Below are positions 3,190 through 42,307 of a stretch of 42,307 nucleotides of DNA, piece after piece. The DNA lies in IMG/VR virus record IMGVR_UViG_2541047692_000013; one strand, 5' to 3'. The DNA is from a virus (lineage: Duplodnaviria; Heunggongvirae; Uroviricota; Caudoviricetes). The first letter of the stretch is position 1; every line of letters begins with the position of its first letter. The notes below the pieces were generated by a model. It worked only from the letters and a program-made list of their open reading frames with translations, was not told the DNA's origin and did no database searches. The position numbers were made by a program, and so were the translations under genes.

Positions 3190-3206
3190 ATTACCCTATA
3201 GGTGAT
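3190..3206. promoter_or_regulatory. operator-like palindrome aTTACCctataGGTGAt (one mismatch) in divergent lysis / acetyltransferase promoter region
   Basis: Member of the recurring TTACC-N5-GGTAA family; 36 bp upstream of the acyltransferase ATG; TATCAT -10-like hexamer abuts it. Confidence 0.45.
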
Positions 3207-3241: not shown

Positions 3242-5182
3242 ATGTCTTATTTAAAATACAGAACAGATATTGATGGGCTGCGAGCTATTGCGGTTTTGCT
3301 GGTCGTGCTGTACCACGCAAACTTTCCTATTCATGGTGGTTTTATTGGTGTAGATGTTTTTTTCGTCATATCAGGATATCTCATTACCAACATCATATAT
3401 AAAGAGACTAAAAGAAATATTTTTTCATTCCTTAATTTTTACAAACGTCGAATAAAGCGATTGCTCCCAGCTTTTGCTTTTCTTCTTTTATTTTTATTTG
3501 TTTACTGCAAATTATATTTGATGCCAGATGAACTTATATCATTCTCTAAAAGTGCGGTATACGCTCTTCTTGGCATAAGCAATTTCTATTTTTTTAGTAG
3601 CACAGGTTACTTTAACTCAACCTCTTATGAACCGCTTTTACACACATGGTCGCTTTCCGTTGAAGAGCAGTTCTACATTGTATGGCCTTTCATCGTTTTC
3701 ATGCTCGCTCGGAACTCAGGGACAAAAAAAGCAATAATAATATCCTCATTACTATTTATTGTATTCCTTGGTATTTCACAGTATGGAGCGGTTAATTATA
3801 AAACAGCAGCGTATCTCCTACTGCCTTTTAGGTTCTTTGAGTTGCTCTCAGGTGCCCTACTTGCTATCTATAAAGATTCAATAACAAAACATCTGCGCCA
3901 CGGTTCTGTAATTTCACTGGTCGGCGTAATGCTGATTGTGTTGAGTTCATTATTTATAAATTCTAACACGCCATTTCCTGGGTTCACTGTTTTGCCTACA
4001 TGTTTAGGCGCTGTAATGCTTATTGCTGCAGGTGACTCATCCAAAAACTTCATTTCTAAAGTGCTGTCTTTAACTCCAGTTGTTTATGTAGGAAGAATTT
4101 CCTACTCTCTTTATTTATGGCACTGGCCTGTACTGATTCTTGCTGAATACAGGGGTATCGATCTTACGGCCTTAAATGCGACGGCGCTCATACTTATCGC
4201 ATTCATCATGGCAAGCATAAGCTATCACTTCGTTGAAAAGCCATTTAGGAAGGATTCGCTGCAATATTTCAGGACTGCATTTATAACCATCTACTTGATA
4301 CCATTAATAGTATCCGCTGCCTATGCAGCGTACATTTTAAAAAATGATGGTTTTCGCGCCAAAAGTTCAGAGTTAGTATCTGAATTAGAAGAGAGAAACG
4401 CGACAAATATTATGCGCCCACAGTGTATTGATAAATTATTTATCGGTAATGTAAATGACTGTCATCTTGGCGTTAATAAAGGCGAAGTAGATGGCGTGCT
4501 TCTTGGTGACTCCTTTGGTAATGCATATGCTTACTTTATTGATGAACTTGCGAAAGATGCTGGAATATCAATAACAGATACTACATATAGCTCAACACCT
4601 GTAATATCAGGAATTTATGTGCAGGATATCAGAAATAAGATATCTGACATAGATGCTAACCTGATAATGACATATACAAAAAACAGGCTGGAGTATGCAG
4701 CAAAACAAAAGTTCGCGATAATTTCCGTTTTTTGGGATCAGTACGGGCCACAAAATAATTACTTCCGTATCTTCGATAAAAACGGTGACGTATCGGAGAA
4801 TGCTTACCAGTTGCAATCTGAAGCAATAAAATATCTGCTGTCCAATGGCGTGAAAGTTTACATCATTGCAAGACCTTACCAGTCTATTGGCCCTGCTGCG
4901 ATAAACAAACTGCGCCAAATTAAGCTACGGCATGGGGATGTAACAACTGAAAAATATGAATACGGCGTAAAGAAAGATGATCGGATAGAATACAAGTTAA
5001 AGCAGGAGTTCCCTCAGATAACGCTAATCGATCCTAACGATGTACTTTGCCACAAAGGGGAATGTGATGCCATCGTGGATGGGAAGATCATTTTCAGAAC
5101 TGATGGTTCACACCTGAATGCTGTTGGAGCAAAAAAAATCGGGGAAGAGTATTTGAAAAACTACGCAAACCCATTTCGATAA
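3242..5182 (+). CDS. O-antigen acetyltransferase-like (acyltransferase-3 membrane domain plus SGNH-type C-terminal domain); serotype-conversion moron
   Basis: N-terminal multi-TM acyltransferase-3 signature (DGLRAIAVLLVVLYH..., FFVISGYLIT); long periplasmic C-terminal domain as in OafA-type enzymes; visibly AT-rich; converges on tailspike. Confidence 0.75.
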   Translation: MSYLKYRTDIDGLRAIAVLLVVLYHANFPIHGGFIGVDVFFVISGYLITNIIYKETKRNIFSFLNFYKRRIKRLLPAFAFLLLFLFVYCKLYLMPDELISFSKSAVYALLGISNFYFFSSTGYFNSTSYEPLLHTWSLSVEEQFYIVWPFIVFMLARNSGTKKAIIISSLLFIVFLGISQYGAVNYKTAAYLLLPFRFFELLSGALLAIYKDSITKHLRHGSVISLVGVMLIVLSSLFINSNTPFPGFTVLPTCLGAVMLIAAGDSSKNFISKVLSLTPVVYVGRISYSLYLWHWPVLILAEYRGIDLTALNATALILIAFIMASISYHFVEKPFRKDSLQYFRTAFITIYLIPLIVSAAYAAYILKNDGFRAKSSELVSELEERNATNIMRPQCIDKLFIGNVNDCHLGVNKGEVDGVLLGDSFGNAYAYFIDELAKDAGISITDTTYSSTPVISGIYVQDIRNKISDIDANLIMTYTKNRLEYAAKQKFAIISVFWDQYGPQNNYFRIFDKNGDVSENAYQLQSEAIKYLLSNGVKVYIIARPYQSIGPAAINKLRQIKLRHGDVTTEKYEYGVKKDDRIEYKLKQEFPQITLIDPNDVLCHKGECDAIVDGKIIFRTDGSHLNAVGAKKIGEEYLKNYANPFR

Positions 5183-7444: not shown

Positions 7445-7547
7445 GTTAAATCTCCAGATAGTCGCAGCACCCGTTGCGCCGCATATCTGGTTATTCTATT
7501 ACCTGAAAAACCATATATGGATGGAAAGAGTGTTAATGTGAGCAGAT

Positions 7548-7564
7548 ATTACCTTTCAGGTGAT
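7548..7564. promoter_or_regulatory. operator-like palindrome aTTACCtttcaGGTGAt (one mismatch) in tailspike / antirepressor-domain divergent region
   Basis: Same family as the other TTACC-N5-GGTAA sites; about 100 bp upstream of tailspike start. Confidence 0.45.
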
Positions 7565-7600
7565 TCGCAAAACGTGCTGGATAGCAAACAAATTATTTGC

Positions 7601-7620
7601 TACTGTATAAACATACAGTT
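7601..7620. promoter_or_regulatory. LexA (SOS) box TACTGTATAAACATACAGTT
   Basis: CTGT-N8-ACAG with AT-rich spacer; 17/20 match to E. coli consensus TACTGTATATATATACAGTA; overlaps a TATAAA -10-like hexamer; 20 bp upstream of ATG 7640. Confidence 0.65.
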
Positions 7621-7639
7621 ATTGCATGGAGAAGATAAG

Positions 7640-7897
7640 ATGCAGCAGTATCACTATCCACTGGAAGAGGGATTTACCGAAAGGATTCACACGCCGGGAG
7701 GCGTCAGGTCACTGGTGGAAGGATCGCACTTGATGAAATTACTCCGGGATCTCGATAAGGATGGATTTAATGTCGATGGCCCACTTGCCGAACTGACTGC
7801 ACTGATTAACTACGTCACCAGCTCACAGATGTCTATGCAGGATCTGCAAACACATCTCGACTATTGTGCCGAACAACTACGAAAACAAACCACATAA
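7640..7897 (+). CDS. small protein homologous to the antirepressor C-terminal domain (stand-alone domain); candidate SOS-inducible antirepressor
   Basis: ATG 7640 with SD ggagaag; about 40% identity, gap-free, to the C-terminus of the Ant protein at 9045..9755 (IH.P.GV..L.E.S.LM.LL..L..DG..V.G..AELT...QTH). ORF track start 7517 would put the LexA box inside the CDS. Confidence 0.5.
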   Translation: MQQYHYPLEEGFTERIHTPGGVRSLVEGSHLMKLLRDLDKDGFNVDGPLAELTALINYVTSSQMSMQDLQTHLDYCAEQLRKQTT

Positions 7898-7903
7898 AGA
7901 AAA

Positions 7904-7919
7904 GGCCGCAAGAGCGGCC
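7904..7919. terminator. bidirectional terminator hairpin between convergent genes
   Basis: Stem ggccgc/gcggcc with loop aaga; T-rich on the minus-strand side, A-rich on the plus side. Confidence 0.5.
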
Positions 7920-8647
7920 TATCGTTTCGCTTTGTGCTCGTCCCAGCACGTTTTGCACCATGCCATTAAGCCATCCGCATTTTGATTATTAGGGTAAAAG
8001 CTGGTTCGTTTTCTGCGGACATTACAAATTGGGCACCACTTCATATGACGTGTATTCTTTGGGCCATCTAGACACCTTGCACACCACTTAGTCAATCCAT
8101 CTGGATTTTTTGACGATTTCCTGAATTTTTCATATGGAAGGTTTATTCTGCATCGCAAACACTGCTTGCGGGCACTTGAAACTTCGTTAGCTGATTCTTC
8201 TTTTGACGGCGATACAGAAGGTATTCTTGCTGGCTCTGATACTGCCTGAGGTGCTTTTTTAGGTGACTGAGACGATACGTCATCACCAGGGAATCTTCCA
8301 TGATATGCCGGACACGTTGACACTCCAGGTGGAAGCTCTGCTGTAAATGGCTTTGGCTGAATCAGTTGCCTCTCTTTTGCTAACTCCTGCTGTTTATAAT
8401 ATGTCTGGATTACCGCGCTATCATAAGCAGGAGGTACGGAAATATTAGGCGCATTATCTCCCGTTTTTTGAAACTGAGTGGAGGTGTGTTCTATCACCTG
8501 TGTACGATTAATCGTTATCTCCCCATCTTCAGTCTTTATCGTTTTGTTACGATTAACGACCGTACGATCAGAGATCTTAGTCTTGTTCTGGTGAAGGACA
8601 TAAATAATCACCGCAACCACACCAACAACTATCCAGAAAACTTCCAT
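7919..8647 (-). CDS. membrane-anchored protein with two C-terminal CxxC...CxxC zinc-ribbon-like repeats; function unknown
   Basis: N-terminal TM helix (VFWIVVGVVAVIIYVL); repeats CLRCRINLPYEKF...WCARC and CPICNVRRKRTSF...WCKTC; perfect operator 20 bp upstream of start. Confidence 0.5.
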   Translation of the reverse strand: MEVFWIVVGVVAVIIYVLHQNKTKISDRTVVNRNKTIKTEDGEITINRTQVIEHTSTQFQKTGDNAPNISVPPAYDSAVIQTYYKQQELAKERQLIQPKPFTAELPPGVSTCPAYHGRFPGDDVSSQSPKKAPQAVSEPARIPSVSPSKEESANEVSSARKQCLRCRINLPYEKFRKSSKNPDGLTKWCARCLDGPKNTRHMKWCPICNVRRKRTSFYPNNQNADGLMAWCKTCWDEHKAKR

Positions 8648-8666: not shown

Positions 8667-8683
8667 ATTACCTTAAAGGTAAT
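8667..8683. promoter_or_regulatory. operator palindrome aTTACCttaaaGGTAAt (perfect)
   Basis: Perfect TTACC-N5-GGTAA; immediately upstream of the 7919..8647 start codon on the minus strand. Confidence 0.55.
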
Positions 8684-8731: not shown

Positions 8732-8776
8732 TTGATTTTTATATTTCTCCGCGTTTATCATTACCTTTGCGGTAAA
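8732..8776 (+). promoter_or_regulatory. sigma70-like promoter (TTGATT, 18 bp, TATCAT) with perfect operator TTACCtttgcGGTAA overlapping -10/+1
   Basis: -35 at 8732-8737, -10 at 8756-8761, operator core 8761-8775. Confidence 0.5.
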
Positions 8777-8888
8777 TTTACATCGCACTCCTCTTGTGCC
8801 ATAGTAATCGGGCACTGGCAAAATCCAGTGCCGGGATTGGCGTCCCGGGTTACTAAGTGGCGCATACCACGCCAGACGTGGTTTTTTT
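8768..8888 (+). ncRNA. candidate small non-coding RNA, possibly antisense regulator of the downstream antirepressor mRNA
   Basis: Promoter at 8732-8761 and intrinsic terminator (ccacg-ccaga-cgtgg plus 7 T, 8867-8888); only an ATG-less ORF spans it; internal hairpins; two segments (8837-8843, 8853-8860) are collinearly complementary to the ant leader (8954-8961, 8968-8974). Confidence 0.3.
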
Positions 8889-9044
8889 ATGCGTTAAGCA
8901 CAGCTATATCCGAATTATGGTGGGCTGGGCAGGGGTCCGAAAGGACGCCGGTACCACTTAGGCCGGTACGCCAACCTTGTCCAGTTCACCACCAGTAATT
9001 GGCGTTGCGGTGGTGATTAAAATCACTAAGTGGAGATAACCACC

Positions 9045-9755
9045 ATGGCTAATGCTCAAACTTCCATCTTCAAATTTGAATCTGTTAACCCTATCCGTTC
9101 CATCATTATCGATGGCCAACCATGGTTTGTAGCCCAAGACGTTTGTAGTGCGCTGCGTATCCAAAACGTCACCCAAGCACTTGAAAAACTGGATGATGAT
9201 GAAAGGTCTATGTTCAACATAGGGCATGAACATCGTGCAATTTTTGACAGCCGAGTAAAAGAGATCAACATCATCTCCGAGTCAGGCCTCTACACACTGA
9301 TCCTCAGATGCCGCGACGCAGTGACACCAGGCACTATCCCCTACCGCTTTCGTAAATGGGTTACAGGTGAGGTTCTTCCTCAGATCCGCCGCACCGGAAG
9401 TTACATTAAAAACTCGCTCCCGCAGGAAGAACGCATAAAGATGGTTGCCGACCAGGTAGCCAACGCCACGGCGTCAGCAGTAATGCAGGCGATGAAGATA
9501 GAGAACAAAACCTACAGTGCCCCACTGAAGCCCGGCTACCGCAGTCTGATTCACTCGCCGTCTGGTGTTCTCGGCCTGACGGAGAACTCACTGCTGATGA
9601 ATCTGCTGAACCAGTTGCAGGACGACGGGCATGATGTATCGGGCGCGGCAGCGGAGCTGACCACCATGTTCTGCTACATCGTCGGTGTGAGCAAGTGCCT
9701 GCGTGATATCCAGACCCACGCGGAGTATATCAACGACAAAGCAGGGTTCTTCTGA
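9045..9755 (+). CDS. antirepressor (Bro-N / Ant family)
   Basis: Start taken as ATG 9045 with SD ggag; N-terminal Bro-N-like motif (IDGQPWFVAQDVCSALRI...LYTLILRCR...FRKWVTGEVLPQIRRTGSY). Confidence 0.75.
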   Translation: MANAQTSIFKFESVNPIRSIIIDGQPWFVAQDVCSALRIQNVTQALEKLDDDERSMFNIGHEHRAIFDSRVKEINIISESGLYTLILRCRDAVTPGTIPYRFRKWVTGEVLPQIRRTGSYIKNSLPQEERIKMVADQVANATASAVMQAMKIENKTYSAPLKPGYRSLIHSPSGVLGLTENSLLMNLLNQLQDDGHDVSGAAAELTTMFCYIVGVSKCLRDIQTHAEYINDKAGFF

Positions 9756-9826: not shown

Positions 9827-9843
9827 ATTACCTCAAGGGTAAG
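9827..9843. promoter_or_regulatory. operator palindrome aTTACCtcaagGGTAAg (perfect)
   Basis: 60 bp upstream of the 9902 ATG. Confidence 0.55.
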
Positions 9844-9901: not shown

Positions 9902-10534
9902 ATGAGAACAAATACAACAAGAAAAGCGATGCCATACATTATCCCAGAAGCAGATTTCGATAGAAAACTGAACATGTCTGAGAAGAACACTAGTCACACC
10001 GAAAGCTACTTAGCGAAAGGTGTGGTTGATTTCGTTCTTCCGGGATTCACAACACCTTATGGTTATCGCCTTGTAAAATCTTGTAATGGCGATCATTACA
10101 GAATGATTACTACCAGCGATACTCCAGAAACGGTGTATGCGGTTAAGTTAATCTTTCGGGAAGATATCGTCGAAGCCAAAAGAACATGTACGCAGATCAT
10201 GGTATGGCGTACGCCTAATGTTATTCATGACCGTGCTGTTCATGGTTTGCCTCAGATTTTTTTTCAGTTCTTCCTAGAGCAATATGCGATCGTTGTATCT
10301 GATGAGCAACAAACAATCGATGGGAGAAGATTCTGGGAAAGAATGATTTCTTGGGCTATAAACACCCCAGGATATAATGTATACGTTTCAGATGGCTCTG
10401 AAGAAGATAGACCTCTTAGCTTCATGACATCATGGGATGATTTCTATAGCCAGTGGGCTGATTTCTGTTGGGGCAGTGATAAAGATGTGCATACCCACAG
10501 ACTACTGGTTATAAGCAAAGATAAACTGCATTAA
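9902..10534 (+). CDS. hypothetical protein (moron, no recognisable domain)
   Basis: ATG 9902 with SD gggagga; 210 aa soluble protein; AT-rich relative to virion genes; own operator upstream and terminator downstream. Confidence 0.55.
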   Translation: MRTNTTRKAMPYIIPEADFDRKLNMSEKNTSHTESYLAKGVVDFVLPGFTTPYGYRLVKSCNGDHYRMITTSDTPETVYAVKLIFREDIVEAKRTCTQIMVWRTPNVIHDRAVHGLPQIFFQFFLEQYAIVVSDEQQTIDGRRFWERMISWAINTPGYNVYVSDGSEEDRPLSFMTSWDDFYSQWADFCWGSDKDVHTHRLLVISKDKLH

Positions 10535-27033: not shown

Positions 27034-27071
27034 TTGACATTTAACGCACGAATTATTACCTTTCAGGTAAG
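27034..27071 (+). promoter_or_regulatory. promoter-like element (TTGACA at 27034-27039) with perfect operator TTACCtttcaGGTAA (27056-27070), in divergent region between virion operon and tRNA module
   Basis: Consensus -35 hexamer; operator where a -10 would lie; region is ORF-free on both strands. Confidence 0.45.
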
Positions 27072-27392: not shown

Positions 27393-27469
27393 GTGGCATT
27401 AGCTCAGTTGGACAGAGCAACCGCCTTCTAAGCGGTCGGTCGCAGGTTCGAATCCTGCATGCCACGCCA
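27393..27469 (+). tRNA. tRNA-Arg (anticodon UCU)
   Basis: 77-nt cloverleaf by hand: acceptor GTGGCAT/ATGCCAC, D-arm GCTC/GAGC, anticodon stem ACCGC/GCGGT with loop CTTCTAA, T-arm GCAGG-TTCGAAT-CCTGC, discriminator G, encoded CCA. Confidence 0.85.
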
Positions 27470-27555: not shown

Positions 27556-27632
27556 CAGCAGGACGCCATTGCGATGGCTTCATGCTGTAAACCAGTACAG
27601 CCACGGAAGGCATAACTCATTGCTTCCAGTTC

Positions 27633-36177: not shown

Positions 36178-36408
36178 TCATGAGTAGAAGAAGTATGCCA
36201 GTTCTGCTTTTGAGCGCAGCCATTGTCTTGTTTTACAGGCTTTAAAAAGCCCATTCATCAATACTTTACCTGGCATTTTGCGCTTACCTGTTAAGTGAGT
36301 CTGGATATAGTGACTCGTCGTTCCGGCTTCCTGTGCGAAGGCTTCACGCTCATCCGGAGTAAGTGCAAGCCAGTGCTTTTTGAAATCGAAATGTCCGTTA
36401 TCGCTCAT
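36178..36408 (-). CDS. Cro-like HTH regulator
   Basis: 76 aa; HTH (REAFAQEAGTTSHYIQTHLTG); divergent from the CI-like gene across the operator cluster; first gene of the leftward early operon. Confidence 0.6.
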   Translation of the reverse strand: MSDNGHFDFKKHWLALTPDEREAFAQEAGTTSHYIQTHLTGKRKMPGKVLMNGLFKACKTRQWLRSKAELAYFFYS

Positions 36409-36443: not shown

Positions 36444-36508
36444 TTCACCCATAAGGTAACAAAAATCAAGGATAGTTACCCATGAGGTGCATTTACCTGT
36501 TGGGTAAT
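36444..36508. promoter_or_regulatory. tripartite operator in the cro / cI-like intergenic region
   Basis: Three sites: TCACCcataaGGTAA (36445-36459), TTACCcatgaGGTGC (36476-36490), TTACCtgttgGGTAA (36493-36507); a minus-strand TTGATT -35-like hexamer lies among them. Confidence 0.6.
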
Positions 36509-36562: not shown

Positions 36563-37147
36563 ATGAAAAGTATCCAGGACGTCCGCAGGCAAAATCTCAA
36601 CGACTTGATCGACCGTGAATTCAATGGTGTTCAGACGCGGATGGCAGAAAAACTTGGAACTCAGGCAAATCTGGTAAACCGCTGGGCTCTTGGCAAGAAG
36701 GTTATCGGCGACCAGGTTGCGCGAAAAATTGAAGCTGCCGCCAATAAACCACGTAACTGGCTTGATATCGATCGCTCGCTTTCTCAGGAAGGTTTTCAGC
36801 CTGTCGGCCCAAGCGACATTGGTCAGCTGGCGGCTCACAACCTGGAACGCTGGATGAGCGAAAGCCGCGACCTTTCAACTCAGGGAAAACTTCACCGCGC
36901 ATCCGGCGTCGCCCAGGTGACAATCAGCCGCCTGTTAAACAATGAGGTCAGTGTTTCCATTTCCACCCTGGAGAATGTTGCATCAGCATTCGGGCGTCAC
37001 GGCTATGAATTACTGATTCACCCGCACGACCCTGCGACCATCAACTATGACCGCTCGCGCTACGCATTGTTACCCGAAACCGAGAAAGCAAAGATCGAAA
37101 GTTACATTGAATTTGTCATCAACCAGAACGAAAAAAACAAACAATAA
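36563..37147 (+). CDS. CI-like repressor with two tandem HTH (XRE-type) domains and no peptidase/autocleavage domain
   Basis: 194 aa; HTH-like segments at about residues 20-45 (VQTRMAEKLGTQANLVNRW) and 110-140 (ASGVAQVTISRLLNNEVSVSISTLENVASAF); no Ala-Gly/Ser-Lys LexA-type cleavage module seen. Confidence 0.55.
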   Translation: MKSIQDVRRQNLNDLIDREFNGVQTRMAEKLGTQANLVNRWALGKKVIGDQVARKIEAAANKPRNWLDIDRSLSQEGFQPVGPSDIGQLAAHNLERWMSESRDLSTQGKLHRASGVAQVTISRLLNNEVSVSISTLENVASAFGRHGYELLIHPHDPATINYDRSRYALLPETEKAKIESYIEFVINQNEKNKQ

Positions 37148-41056: not shown

Positions 41057-42307
41057 TTATTCCCCCGCCATCCACTTCTCAAACTTCGACGGGGAGAACG
41101 GAATCAGATCCGTATGCTCCCCGTTAATCCAGGAATCAATCATATCGGCCCACTGCTGCAACATGTAGGCGCGCTGTCTGGCGTATTCCGCTTTGTTATA
41201 TACGGCGCGCACACCTTTCTGCTCATGTGCCAGAGCCTTTTCAATCCAGTCTGAAGGATAACCAGCCTCATGCAACAACGTACTGGCTGTACGGCGCATA
41301 TCGTGTACGGTGAAGCCCTGAATATGCTCACCATCTTCATTTATTATTTTCACCGTTCTGTCGATCAGAGAGTTCAGCGCGGCATTAGATAATGGCTTCC
41401 GGAAATTGTAACGACCAGGAACCAGATATTCACTTCCACCAGCGCACATCTGCAACCCAACCAATATATCCTGTGCCTGTTTAGGCAGGTAAATAACGTG
41501 CGCCCGGCTTCCCTTCATGCGGTCTGAAGGAATTGTCCATGTCCATTTTTTAAAATCTATTTCATCCCACGTTGCATTGGTGAATTCGCCTTTACGAACC
41601 ATAGTGATAAGCACCAGCTTTAAAGCCATTTTCATAGTGCCCATAGCACCAATGGCATCCAGCGTGCGGAAGAACAGACCAATTTCTTCTGGTGTCAGTG
41701 TTCGCTCTCGTGGTTTAAATATGGCGATAGACGAAGGTTTAATGTCAGCCGCAGGATTAAACAAACCATGACCACGGTCATTGGCATGACGGTATACGCT
41801 GCTGATGATCTCCCTGGCCTGCACTGCTGTTGCCCGGCCGCCGCGTTCGACAATCCGGTCACACAAATCACGAACCATCGATGTGGTAATTTCAGTCATC
41901 ATTTTGTTGCCAAGAACCGGAAGTATGTCACGGTCGATCACCACCTGCTTCATTGCGCGGGTACTGTCAGCTAGGATGACATGTTTCATATAACTGTCGG
42001 TATGTACCGCAAACGTCTCGGCACCACGAATCTTTTTGATACCGTCACGTTTAGCCGCAGCCGGTGACTGGCCTGCTTTAAGCAGCTTCTTTGCAGCAAT
42101 CAGTTCTTCTCGCGCTTCTGCCAGGCTGATACCGTCACGCCCATACTGCCCGATTACCAGTGTTTCGCGGCGACCGTTGATACGGTAGTCATAGCGAAAC
42201 GAGACCGTGCCTGACGTAAGCACAGCTACATACAGCCCGTCACGATCGGAGACCTTGTACAGTTTGTCCTGCGGCTTGAGGTTTTTTAATTTTGTATCGG
42301 TAAGCAC
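41057..42307 (-). CDS. int: tyrosine integrase, P4-type
   Basis: 416 aa; N-terminal MLTDTKLKNLKP...YKVSD...GLY motif of P4-like integrases; C-terminal catalytic region with HDMRRT and terminal Tyr region; start codon at the window edge. Confidence 0.85.
   Translation of the reverse strand: MLTDTKLKNLKPQDKLYKVSDRDGLYVAVLTSGTVSFRYDYRINGRRETLVIGQYGRDGISLAEAREELIAAKKLLKAGQSPAAAKRDGIKKIRGAETFAVHTDSYMKHVILADSTRAMKQVVIDRDILPVLGNKMMTEITTSMVRDLCDRIVERGGRATAVQAREIISSVYRHANDRGHGLFNPAADIKPSSIAIFKPRERTLTPEEIGLFFRTLDAIGAMGTMKMALKLVLITMVRKGEFTNATWDEIDFKKWTWTIPSDRMKGSRAHVIYLPKQAQDILVGLQMCAGGSEYLVPGRYNFRKPLSNAALNSLIDRTVKIINEDGEHIQGFTVHDMRRTASTLLHEAGYPSDWIEKALAHEQKGVRAVYNKAEYARQRAYMLQQWADMIDSWINGEHTDLIPFSPSKFEKWMAGE

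Follow-up and report, generated by a model that had tools for sequence, protein, structure and literature searches.

The window, by which we mean the whole 42.3-kb stretch of DNA that was analysed, very probably carries an SPC32H-type switch in an E. coli prophage, in which LexA would control a small antirepressor (Ant) directed against the prophage repressor (Rep), so that the prophage would be induced by the SOS response. We put the probability of this reading at roughly 0.88. SOS induction through a LexA-controlled antirepressor had been proposed in an original prediction made from the sequence, and our analysis supports it: all elements of such a switch are present in the sequence, and the system appears orthologous to the characterised Ant/Rep pair of SPC32H. 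What we show directly concerns sequences, homologies, synteny, conservation and statistics; by analogy with that pair, we infer LexA binding, SOS-dependent expression and binding of Ant to Rep in this prophage.

The prophage and its gene order

By its sequence, the window belongs to the phiV10/epsilon15-like (Uetakevirus) prophages of E. coli, since the order of its genes (oac, the tailspike gene on the minus strand, ant on the plus strand and the injection-protein genes on the minus strand) is the same in SPC32H and phiV10. The genes around this locus, and others referred to below, are the following.

41057..42307: integrase of the prophage
3242-5182, plus strand: AT3 acyltransferase with a fused SGNH domain, an O-antigen acetylase of the phiV10 and SPC32H type
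7640..7897, plus strand: ant, encoding the 85-aa small antirepressor, orthologue of SPC32H Ant
7919-8647, minus strand: gene for a 242-aa protein (PHROG 6762), convergent with ant, the two having a common terminator
9902-10534, plus strand: 210-aa ORF (PHROG 1349) with no function assigned
27393-27469, plus strand: tRNA-Arg(TCT) gene within the prophage

Compared with SPC32H, the window has about 3 kb more genes downstream of ant, none of them found in SPC32H; this extra block comprises a zinc-ribbon protein, isrK and C4 RNAs, a Bro-N antirepressor and the 210-aa ORF. The zinc-ribbon protein is the 242-aa product of 7919-8647, whose C-terminal cysteine-rich zinc-ribbon repeats are weakly like Stc1, endonuclease VII and Lar, and for which SPC32H has no counterpart at the matching position. 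An operator-like palindrome of the kind described below (9827-9843) lies 75 bp upstream of the 210-aa ORF. Another (3190-3206) accompanies the acyltransferase gene, which adjoins the tailspike gene; the O-antigen acetylase type seen in phiV10 and SPC32H stands for lysogenic conversion and superinfection exclusion. Near the tRNA gene we observed a further operator-like palindrome (27055-27071) and a weak CTGT-N8-ACAG motif (27585-27600, 10 bits).

A stand-alone small antirepressor gene

The only PDB sequence that matched the 85-aa protein was chain E of 5D50, an 86-aa 'Anti-repressor protein' (phmmer, E 5e-48), with the match covering Ant residues 2-85 and chain residues 3-86. Over their full length, in a global alignment, Ant and SPC32H Ant are 89% identical. 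The protein belongs to PHROG 450 (E 1.6e-47), and PGAP calls exactly the ORF 7640..7897 (WP_001188262.1) in an E. coli chromosome whose sequence equals that of the window over 7450-7950 (100% identity). A longer mechanical ORF beginning at 7517 found no support. We found ant to be a stand-alone gene of the ~86-aa kind, divergent from the tailspike gene and with its own terminator, in synteny with SPC32H, SPC32N, epsilon15 and phiV10; the GenBank records of SPC32H and SPC32N label the gene 'ant: anti-repressor protein'.

A tblastn search (E<=1e-5) located Ant in 35 phage records, all of them Uetakevirus-like. Identities were 96-99% in phiV10, TL-2011b and ZX5, 89% in SPC32H, SPC32N and SPN1S, 86% in epsilon15, 79-85% in Enterobacter phages and 62-65% in Klebsiella phages. 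Of 5426 complete E. coli genomes, 531 (~10%) also carry the ant locus. Despite this spread, it is annotated as 'hypothetical protein' in RefSeq/PGAP and as 'unknown function' in PHROG 450, and Pfam and NCBIfam hold no family model for the 85-aa protein. We dismiss a DUF724 match as noise, its 17.6 bits falling short of the cut-off (38.4).

The small protein had been described as homologous to the C-terminal domain of a full antirepressor, and this is what we observed: it aligns with residues 160-237 of the Bro-N antirepressor of the window at 40% identity over 78 aa (E 2e-15). What Ant shares with some annotated antirepressors (PHROG 1760 and this Bro-N protein) is limited to their C-terminal module, and Pfam finds in it no N-terminal domain of the Bro-N or P22 type (Bro-N, KilA-N/AntA).

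A strong LexA box over the probable ant promoter

The control elements assigned to ant, together with its terminator, are listed here.

7548..7564, unstranded: Rep-operator-like palindrome ATTACCTTTCAGGTGAT in the intergenic region from which the tailspike and ant genes diverge, with a putative role
7578-7583, plus strand: candidate -35 of the ant promoter, TGGATA, from conservation
7598-7606, plus strand: candidate extended -10, TG(C)TACTGT, from conservation and likeness to 186 p95
7601-7620, unstranded: LexA (SOS) box TACTGTATAAACATACAGTT, a putative LexA operator (17/20 to consensus, 26.2 bits on the matrix, conserved)
7628-7631, plus strand: Shine-Dalgarno sequence GGAG, 8 nt before the ATG, invariant in 10/10 aligned homologues
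7903-7920, unstranded: terminator hairpin AGGCCGC-aaga-GCGGCCT from a terminator scan (7 pairs, 6 GC)

The original prediction had described a near-consensus LexA box with an intact core 20 bp before the ATG at 7640. When compared with the SOS consensus TACTGTATATATATACAGTA, TACTGTATAAACATACAGTT does agree at 17 of 20 positions, with mismatches at positions 10, 12 and 20; direct reading of 7601-7620 confirmed the CTGT-N8-ACAG core, and the box ends 19 nt upstream of the ATG. No other site in the 42.3-kb window has <=3 mismatches to the consensus, and none of 100 dinucleotide-preserving shuffles of the window contained such a site. The bare CTGT-N8-ACAG motif occurs three times in the window against 0.57 expected, the other two copies (23043 and 27585) having poor flanks and scores of <=10 bits.

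Scoring with a LexA weight matrix had been suggested as a check on the box. Our symmetric matrix was trained on an approximate list of 28 SOS boxes of E. coli (after Lewis 1994 and Fernandez de Henestrosa 2000), which makes the scores approximate as well. On this matrix, 7601-7620 is the best site in the window at 26.2 bits, higher than all 28 training boxes (the best leave-one-out training site scored 25.8 bits), with a window mean of -29 and a standard deviation of 9.6. Its heterology-index-like value of 1.9 places it among the tightest boxes, with those of umuDC and dinD. On this approximate matrix, 7601-7620 thus has both the CTGT-N8-ACAG core and the score of an E. coli-type LexA operator. 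The second-best site in the window (4062-4081, TGCTGTCTTTAACTCCAGTT, 15.3 bits) falls within the acyltransferase ORF and probably arose by chance.

A generic sigma-70 scan of 7445-7640 found no plus-strand promoter and did not report TGGATA, so we assign the ant promoter from its conservation and from its likeness to 186 p95. The -35 candidate reads TGGATA in 7 of 10 homologues and TGGAAA in the other three, which are Klebsiella phages; the TG at 7598-7599 is invariant in all 10, TACTGT (7601-7606) is kept in 7, and the 17-nt spacer between TGGATA and TACTGT is conserved. The -10 had previously been seen in a TATAAA overlapping the box. This hexamer does exist (7606-7611), but we reject it as a -10 because it has no properly spaced -35 (none at 16-18 nt) and is not conserved, phiV10 having TGTATT and SPC32H TATGTT in its place. 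TGGATA-17-TGnTACTGT is more likely to be the ant promoter, to judge from its sequence and the 186 analogy. Transcription would then start near 7613 and the LexA box would span about -12 to +8, a probable overlap of box and -10 like that of SPC32H-type loci. At the other end of the gene, the hairpin 7903-7920 is common to the convergent genes ant (plus strand) and 7919..8647 (minus strand), and in epsilon15 the corresponding stem-loop carries the annotation of a rho-independent terminator.

Conservation of the control region

To follow the box through related phages, we aligned the tailspike-ant intergenic region of 10 phages of E. coli, Salmonella, Enterobacter and Klebsiella. A LexA box stands at the matching position in relatives from all four host genera, and every column of 7601-7620 has its counterpart in the SPC32H box. 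In the phages of E. coli, Salmonella and Enterobacter, both half-sites (CTGT and ACAG) are retained around a variable centre; the Klebsiella phages carry ATGT-N8-ACAG, which scores 17.5 bits on the LexA matrix. The centre reads ATAAACAT in the window and ATGTTTAT in SPC32H, the window version being nearer to consensus.

Over 1452 nt, only 2 positions separate SPC32H from SPC32N, and one of these differences is a C>A change in a LexA half-site (ACAG>AAAG) that lowers the score from 25.0 to 18.3 bits. From the work of Kim and Ryu in 2013, the two phages are said to be two nucleotides apart genome-wide, with the operator mutation leading to constitutive Ant and lytic growth. An effect of this kind would be direct genetic evidence that the orthologous box is functional.

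The repressor and its putative operators

The presumed target of Ant is encoded about 29 kb away, in a region with the following features.

36563..37147, plus strand: rep, encoding the 194-aa prophage repressor, presumed target of Ant
36178..36408, minus strand: Cro-like small regulator (PHROG 35 'transcriptional repressor', E 4.9e-12), divergent from rep
36492..36508, unstranded: operator-like palindrome in the rep/cro-like intergenic region

Rep matches chain A of 5D50, 'Repressor', at E 4e-42 and 5D4Z at E 4e-20. The repressor had been said to lack an autocleavage domain, and rightly so for 36563..37147: Pfam detects only HTH_3/HTH_26 in Rep, as two HTH-type domains, and no S24 peptidase domain. 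By sequence it is a cognate two-domain HTH repressor of the SPC32H type without S24, and its domains suggest that it is non-cleavable. Rep is 100% identical to the Rep of phiV10 and ZX5 and 41.8% identical to that of SPC32H (52% in the N-terminal domain and 38.5% in the C-terminal domain). It is the C-terminal domain of Rep that Ant reportedly contacts, according to Kim and colleagues in 2016. Because the two Reps are only 41.8% identical, and their C-terminal domains 38.5%, we base the pairing of Ant with Rep on their co-occurrence and not on a conserved interface: a Rep homologue is present in 35/35 Ant-carrying phage records, with Reps of five allele groups. Compared with Enterobacter phage Tyrion, Ant is 84.5% and Rep 77.8% identical.

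From its sequence and placement, ATTACC-N5-GGTAAT is probably the Rep operator. In SPC32H, two palindromes of this type occupy the corresponding rep/cro region, and the motif also lies upstream of ant. Allowing <=2 mismatches, we found 17 copies in the window against 1.15 expected (about 15-fold), almost always in intergenic regions. They include sites at 3190, 7548, 8667, 8760, 9827, 27055, 30202, 30220, 34143, 34205, 36492, 37204 and 37267, and thus stand before oac, ant, the Bro-N operon and the 210-aa ORF as well as around rep/cro. The copy before ant (7548..7564) is kept in 10/10 homologous intergenic regions, and the GenBank record of epsilon15 labels the equivalent site 'repressor; lysogeny'. 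Some palindromes are paired 62-63 bp apart (34143/34205 and 37204/37267), an arrangement that may suit a Rep tetramer with two DNA-binding dimers.

A second antirepressor gene and its RNAs

Downstream of ant, the window encodes a second, full-length antirepressor with several elements upstream of it.

8667-8683 and 8760-8776: operator-like palindromes before the Bro-N gene, the first of them perfect
Predicted +1 about 8812: promoter-like TTTACA-17-CATAGT before the Bro-N gene
8812-8888, plus strand: isrK-like sRNA (Rfam RF01394, 67.7 bits, above the gathering threshold), ending in a terminator
8913-8996, plus strand: C4-type antisense RNA (Rfam RF01695, 66 bits, above the gathering threshold)
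9045..9755, plus strand: full-length Bro-N antirepressor (PGAP start 9045, alternative 9030), Ant-like over its C-terminal ~80 aa

The protein matches Pfam Bro-N (E 1e-19) and PHROG 130 'anti-repressor Ant', and its residues 153-234 match PHROG 450, the family of the small Ant. The LexA matrix found no LexA-like site upstream of 9045..9755, and the isrK- and C4-type RNAs are, from the sequence, candidates for a separate control input to this gene. The loop of the C4 RNA, CCACUUAG (8954-8961), has its complement in CUAAGUGG (9026-9033), a stretch overlapping the Shine-Dalgarno sequence of the Bro-N gene, and a second complementarity joins 8915-8923 to 9040-9048. By length, however, the complementarity to the ribosome-binding site is not above chance, a 9-nt stretch arising in 201 of 500 shuffles, so we treat it as a lead only. 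The isrK/C4/Bro-N block is absent from SPC32H.

Both RNA elements have parallels in other phages. The C4 and isrK elements stand immediately before the Bro-N gene, and we take this arrangement to resemble the immI operon of P1/P7 (c4 antisense RNA, icd, ant) and the isrK-orf45-anrP operon of Gifsy-1. In Gifsy-1, transcription from the isrK promoter reads through a terminator and so reaches an antirepressor-like gene downstream (PMC4825925).

The proposed switch and its alternatives

We propose that in a lysogen the host LexA would bind the very strong SOS box at 7601-7620. Lying over the probable -10 (TACTGT) and start of transcription, the box would keep the monocistronic ant transcript off. 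Upon DNA damage, RecA would be activated and LexA would cleave itself, and ant would be transcribed and translated. Ant would then bind the presumably non-cleavable Rep (36563..37147) and remove it from the ATTACC-N5-GGTAAT operators, leading to lytic development. Given that Rep lacks an autocleavage domain and that the prophage has no strong LexA site other than the one before ant, Ant would be the obvious SOS input. For SPC32H, one account states that Ant is made after SOS-induced self-cleavage of LexA and inhibits the repressor by protein-protein interaction (PMC7380047), and another that Rep binds DNA as a tetramer, which is broken when an Ant tetramer binds two Rep dimers (PMC9638917). 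ZX5, whose Rep is identical to that of the window and whose Ant is 98.8% identical, was induced by mitomycin C from 1e7 to 1e9 PFU/ml, a 100-fold rise (PMC9782041).

The 2022 study of ZX5, a near-identical phage, credited antirepressor activity to the Bro-N protein, the small gene lying outside its tests (PMC9782041). One could accordingly argue that the Bro-N/Ant-C protein (9045..9755) is the effective antirepressor and the small Ant only a modulator, for instance a trigger that does not suffice on its own or a competitor for the Rep surface. The window's Bro-N protein does have an Ant-like C-terminal domain, and overexpression of the ZX5 Bro-N protein ('ORF4') cut lysogens about 1000-fold and lowered rep transcripts (PMC9782041). 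That experiment, however, was an overexpression during infection and not an SOS induction, and the Bro-N gene has no LexA-like site of its own. In phiV10, tblastn placed Ant at 1 position of the record, and the Bro-N protein gave no Ant-like match. We therefore regard this explanation as quite unlikely. SPC32H, which has no Bro-N gene at all, also speaks against it, being reportedly SOS-inducible through its small Ant in the work of Kim and Ryu from 2013.

Relative to SPC32H, the two partners of the switch have diverged discordantly, Ant being 89% and Rep only 41.8% identical. On sequence grounds this suggests module shuffling, possibly with an Ant that tolerates different Rep alleles. It could also mean that Ant is conserved but no longer acts on the diverged Rep, having another target or acting on the repressors of co-resident Uetakevirus prophages, and the location of ant ~29 kb from rep in a different mosaic module would fit such a loss. 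Against this, the two occur together in every one of the 35 Ant-carrying phage records, the recognition-helix region NLVNRW is conserved between the window Rep and SPC32H Rep, and so is the operator motif. A second SOS route would moreover be needed, as Rep lacks an autocleavage domain and yet ZX5 is inducible by mitomycin C. We consider this explanation very improbable.

That the LexA-like 20-mer is a chance AT-rich palindrome of a promoter region with no regulatory role has next to no likelihood. The SOS consensus does have an AT-rich middle, as -10 regions generally do, but none of the shuffles matched, known boxes score lower, and the difference in phenotype between SPC32H and SPC32N goes with a natural point mutation in the orthologous box; the conservation of the CTGT and ACAG halves across genera around a varying centre effectively refutes the idea.

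Relation to characterised systems

The closest characterised system is the Ant/Rep pair of SPC32H (Kim & Ryu 2013, J Virol 87:11775; Kim et al. 2016 PNAS 113:E2480; PDB 5D50, 5D4Z), with an orthologous Ant of 86 aa compared with 85 aa in the window. Both phages belong to Uetakevirus, and in both ant diverges from the tailspike gene, the LexA box is equally placed relative to the Shine-Dalgarno sequence and ATG, operator palindromes lie upstream of ant and around rep, and a two-domain Rep without S24 is encoded. The window differs in its Rep allele, which is that of phiV10 (41.8% identity to SPC32H Rep), and in its E. coli host.

The switch had also been likened to those of coliphage 186 (Tum) and the Salmonella Gifsy phages. 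This likeness stands as a functional one and fails as homology to Tum, with BLASTP of Ant against 186 Tum giving no significant similarity (E 0.31, 14.6 bits); Ant is not a member of the Tum family. In 186 the logic is the same, LexA repressing a small antirepressor that inactivates a non-cleavable repressor, and the annotated -10 of p95 is TACTGT, the first 6 nt of its LexA box, a layout that the ant promoter region of the window matches. The window thus resembles 186 p95 functionally in having a probable LexA-repressed promoter with the box over the -10. Tum differs in being DinI-like and 146 aa long, and 186 is a myovirus of the Peduoviridae. The LexA box of 186 p95, TACTGTATGTTTATACAGTA, is the identical 20-mer found before epsilon15 ant and is one base from the SPC32H box; p95 and epsilon15 ant have this same box although the regulated proteins are unrelated.

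GfoA and GftA of Gifsy-1/Gifsy-3 are LexA-controlled antirepressors whose targets are non-cleavable repressors and which may allow prophages to cross-talk (Lemire et al. 2011, PMC3121763), and the route is the one proposed here, SOS induction through LexA-controlled antirepressors. The 35 phage records in which tblastn found Ant (E<=1e-5) include no Gifsy record.

Implications

The mechanism of the switch is already known from SPC32H, and its copy in this E. coli prophage is real but ordinary. Its main value lies in annotation: an experimentally characterised family, Ant, is still unnamed in RefSeq, PHROGs, Pfam and NCBIfam.

A more speculative extension, which we hold tentatively and think more apt to be wrong than right, is a two-stage, two-input circuit built on one Rep-binding module, together with an Ant that acts in trans across Rep alleles. 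In such a circuit, the LexA-controlled small Ant would fire first on SOS, and the Bro-N-Ant fusion, with the C4-type RNA, an isrK-like attenuator and the palindromes at 8667 and 8760 in front of it, would be released only after Rep falls; the fusion would then either lock in lytic commitment by feed-forward or, on superinfection, act as an anti-immunity weapon. Action in trans may be possible because Ant is 89% conserved between phages whose Reps are only 42% identical, and if true it would imply Gifsy-like cross-induction among Uetakevirus prophages.

The LexA-controlled Ant/Rep switch would itself explain how O-antigen-modifying prophages, with carriers of the ant locus including relatives of the O157-converting phage phiV10, respond to DNA-damaging antibiotics despite a presumably non-cleavable repressor.
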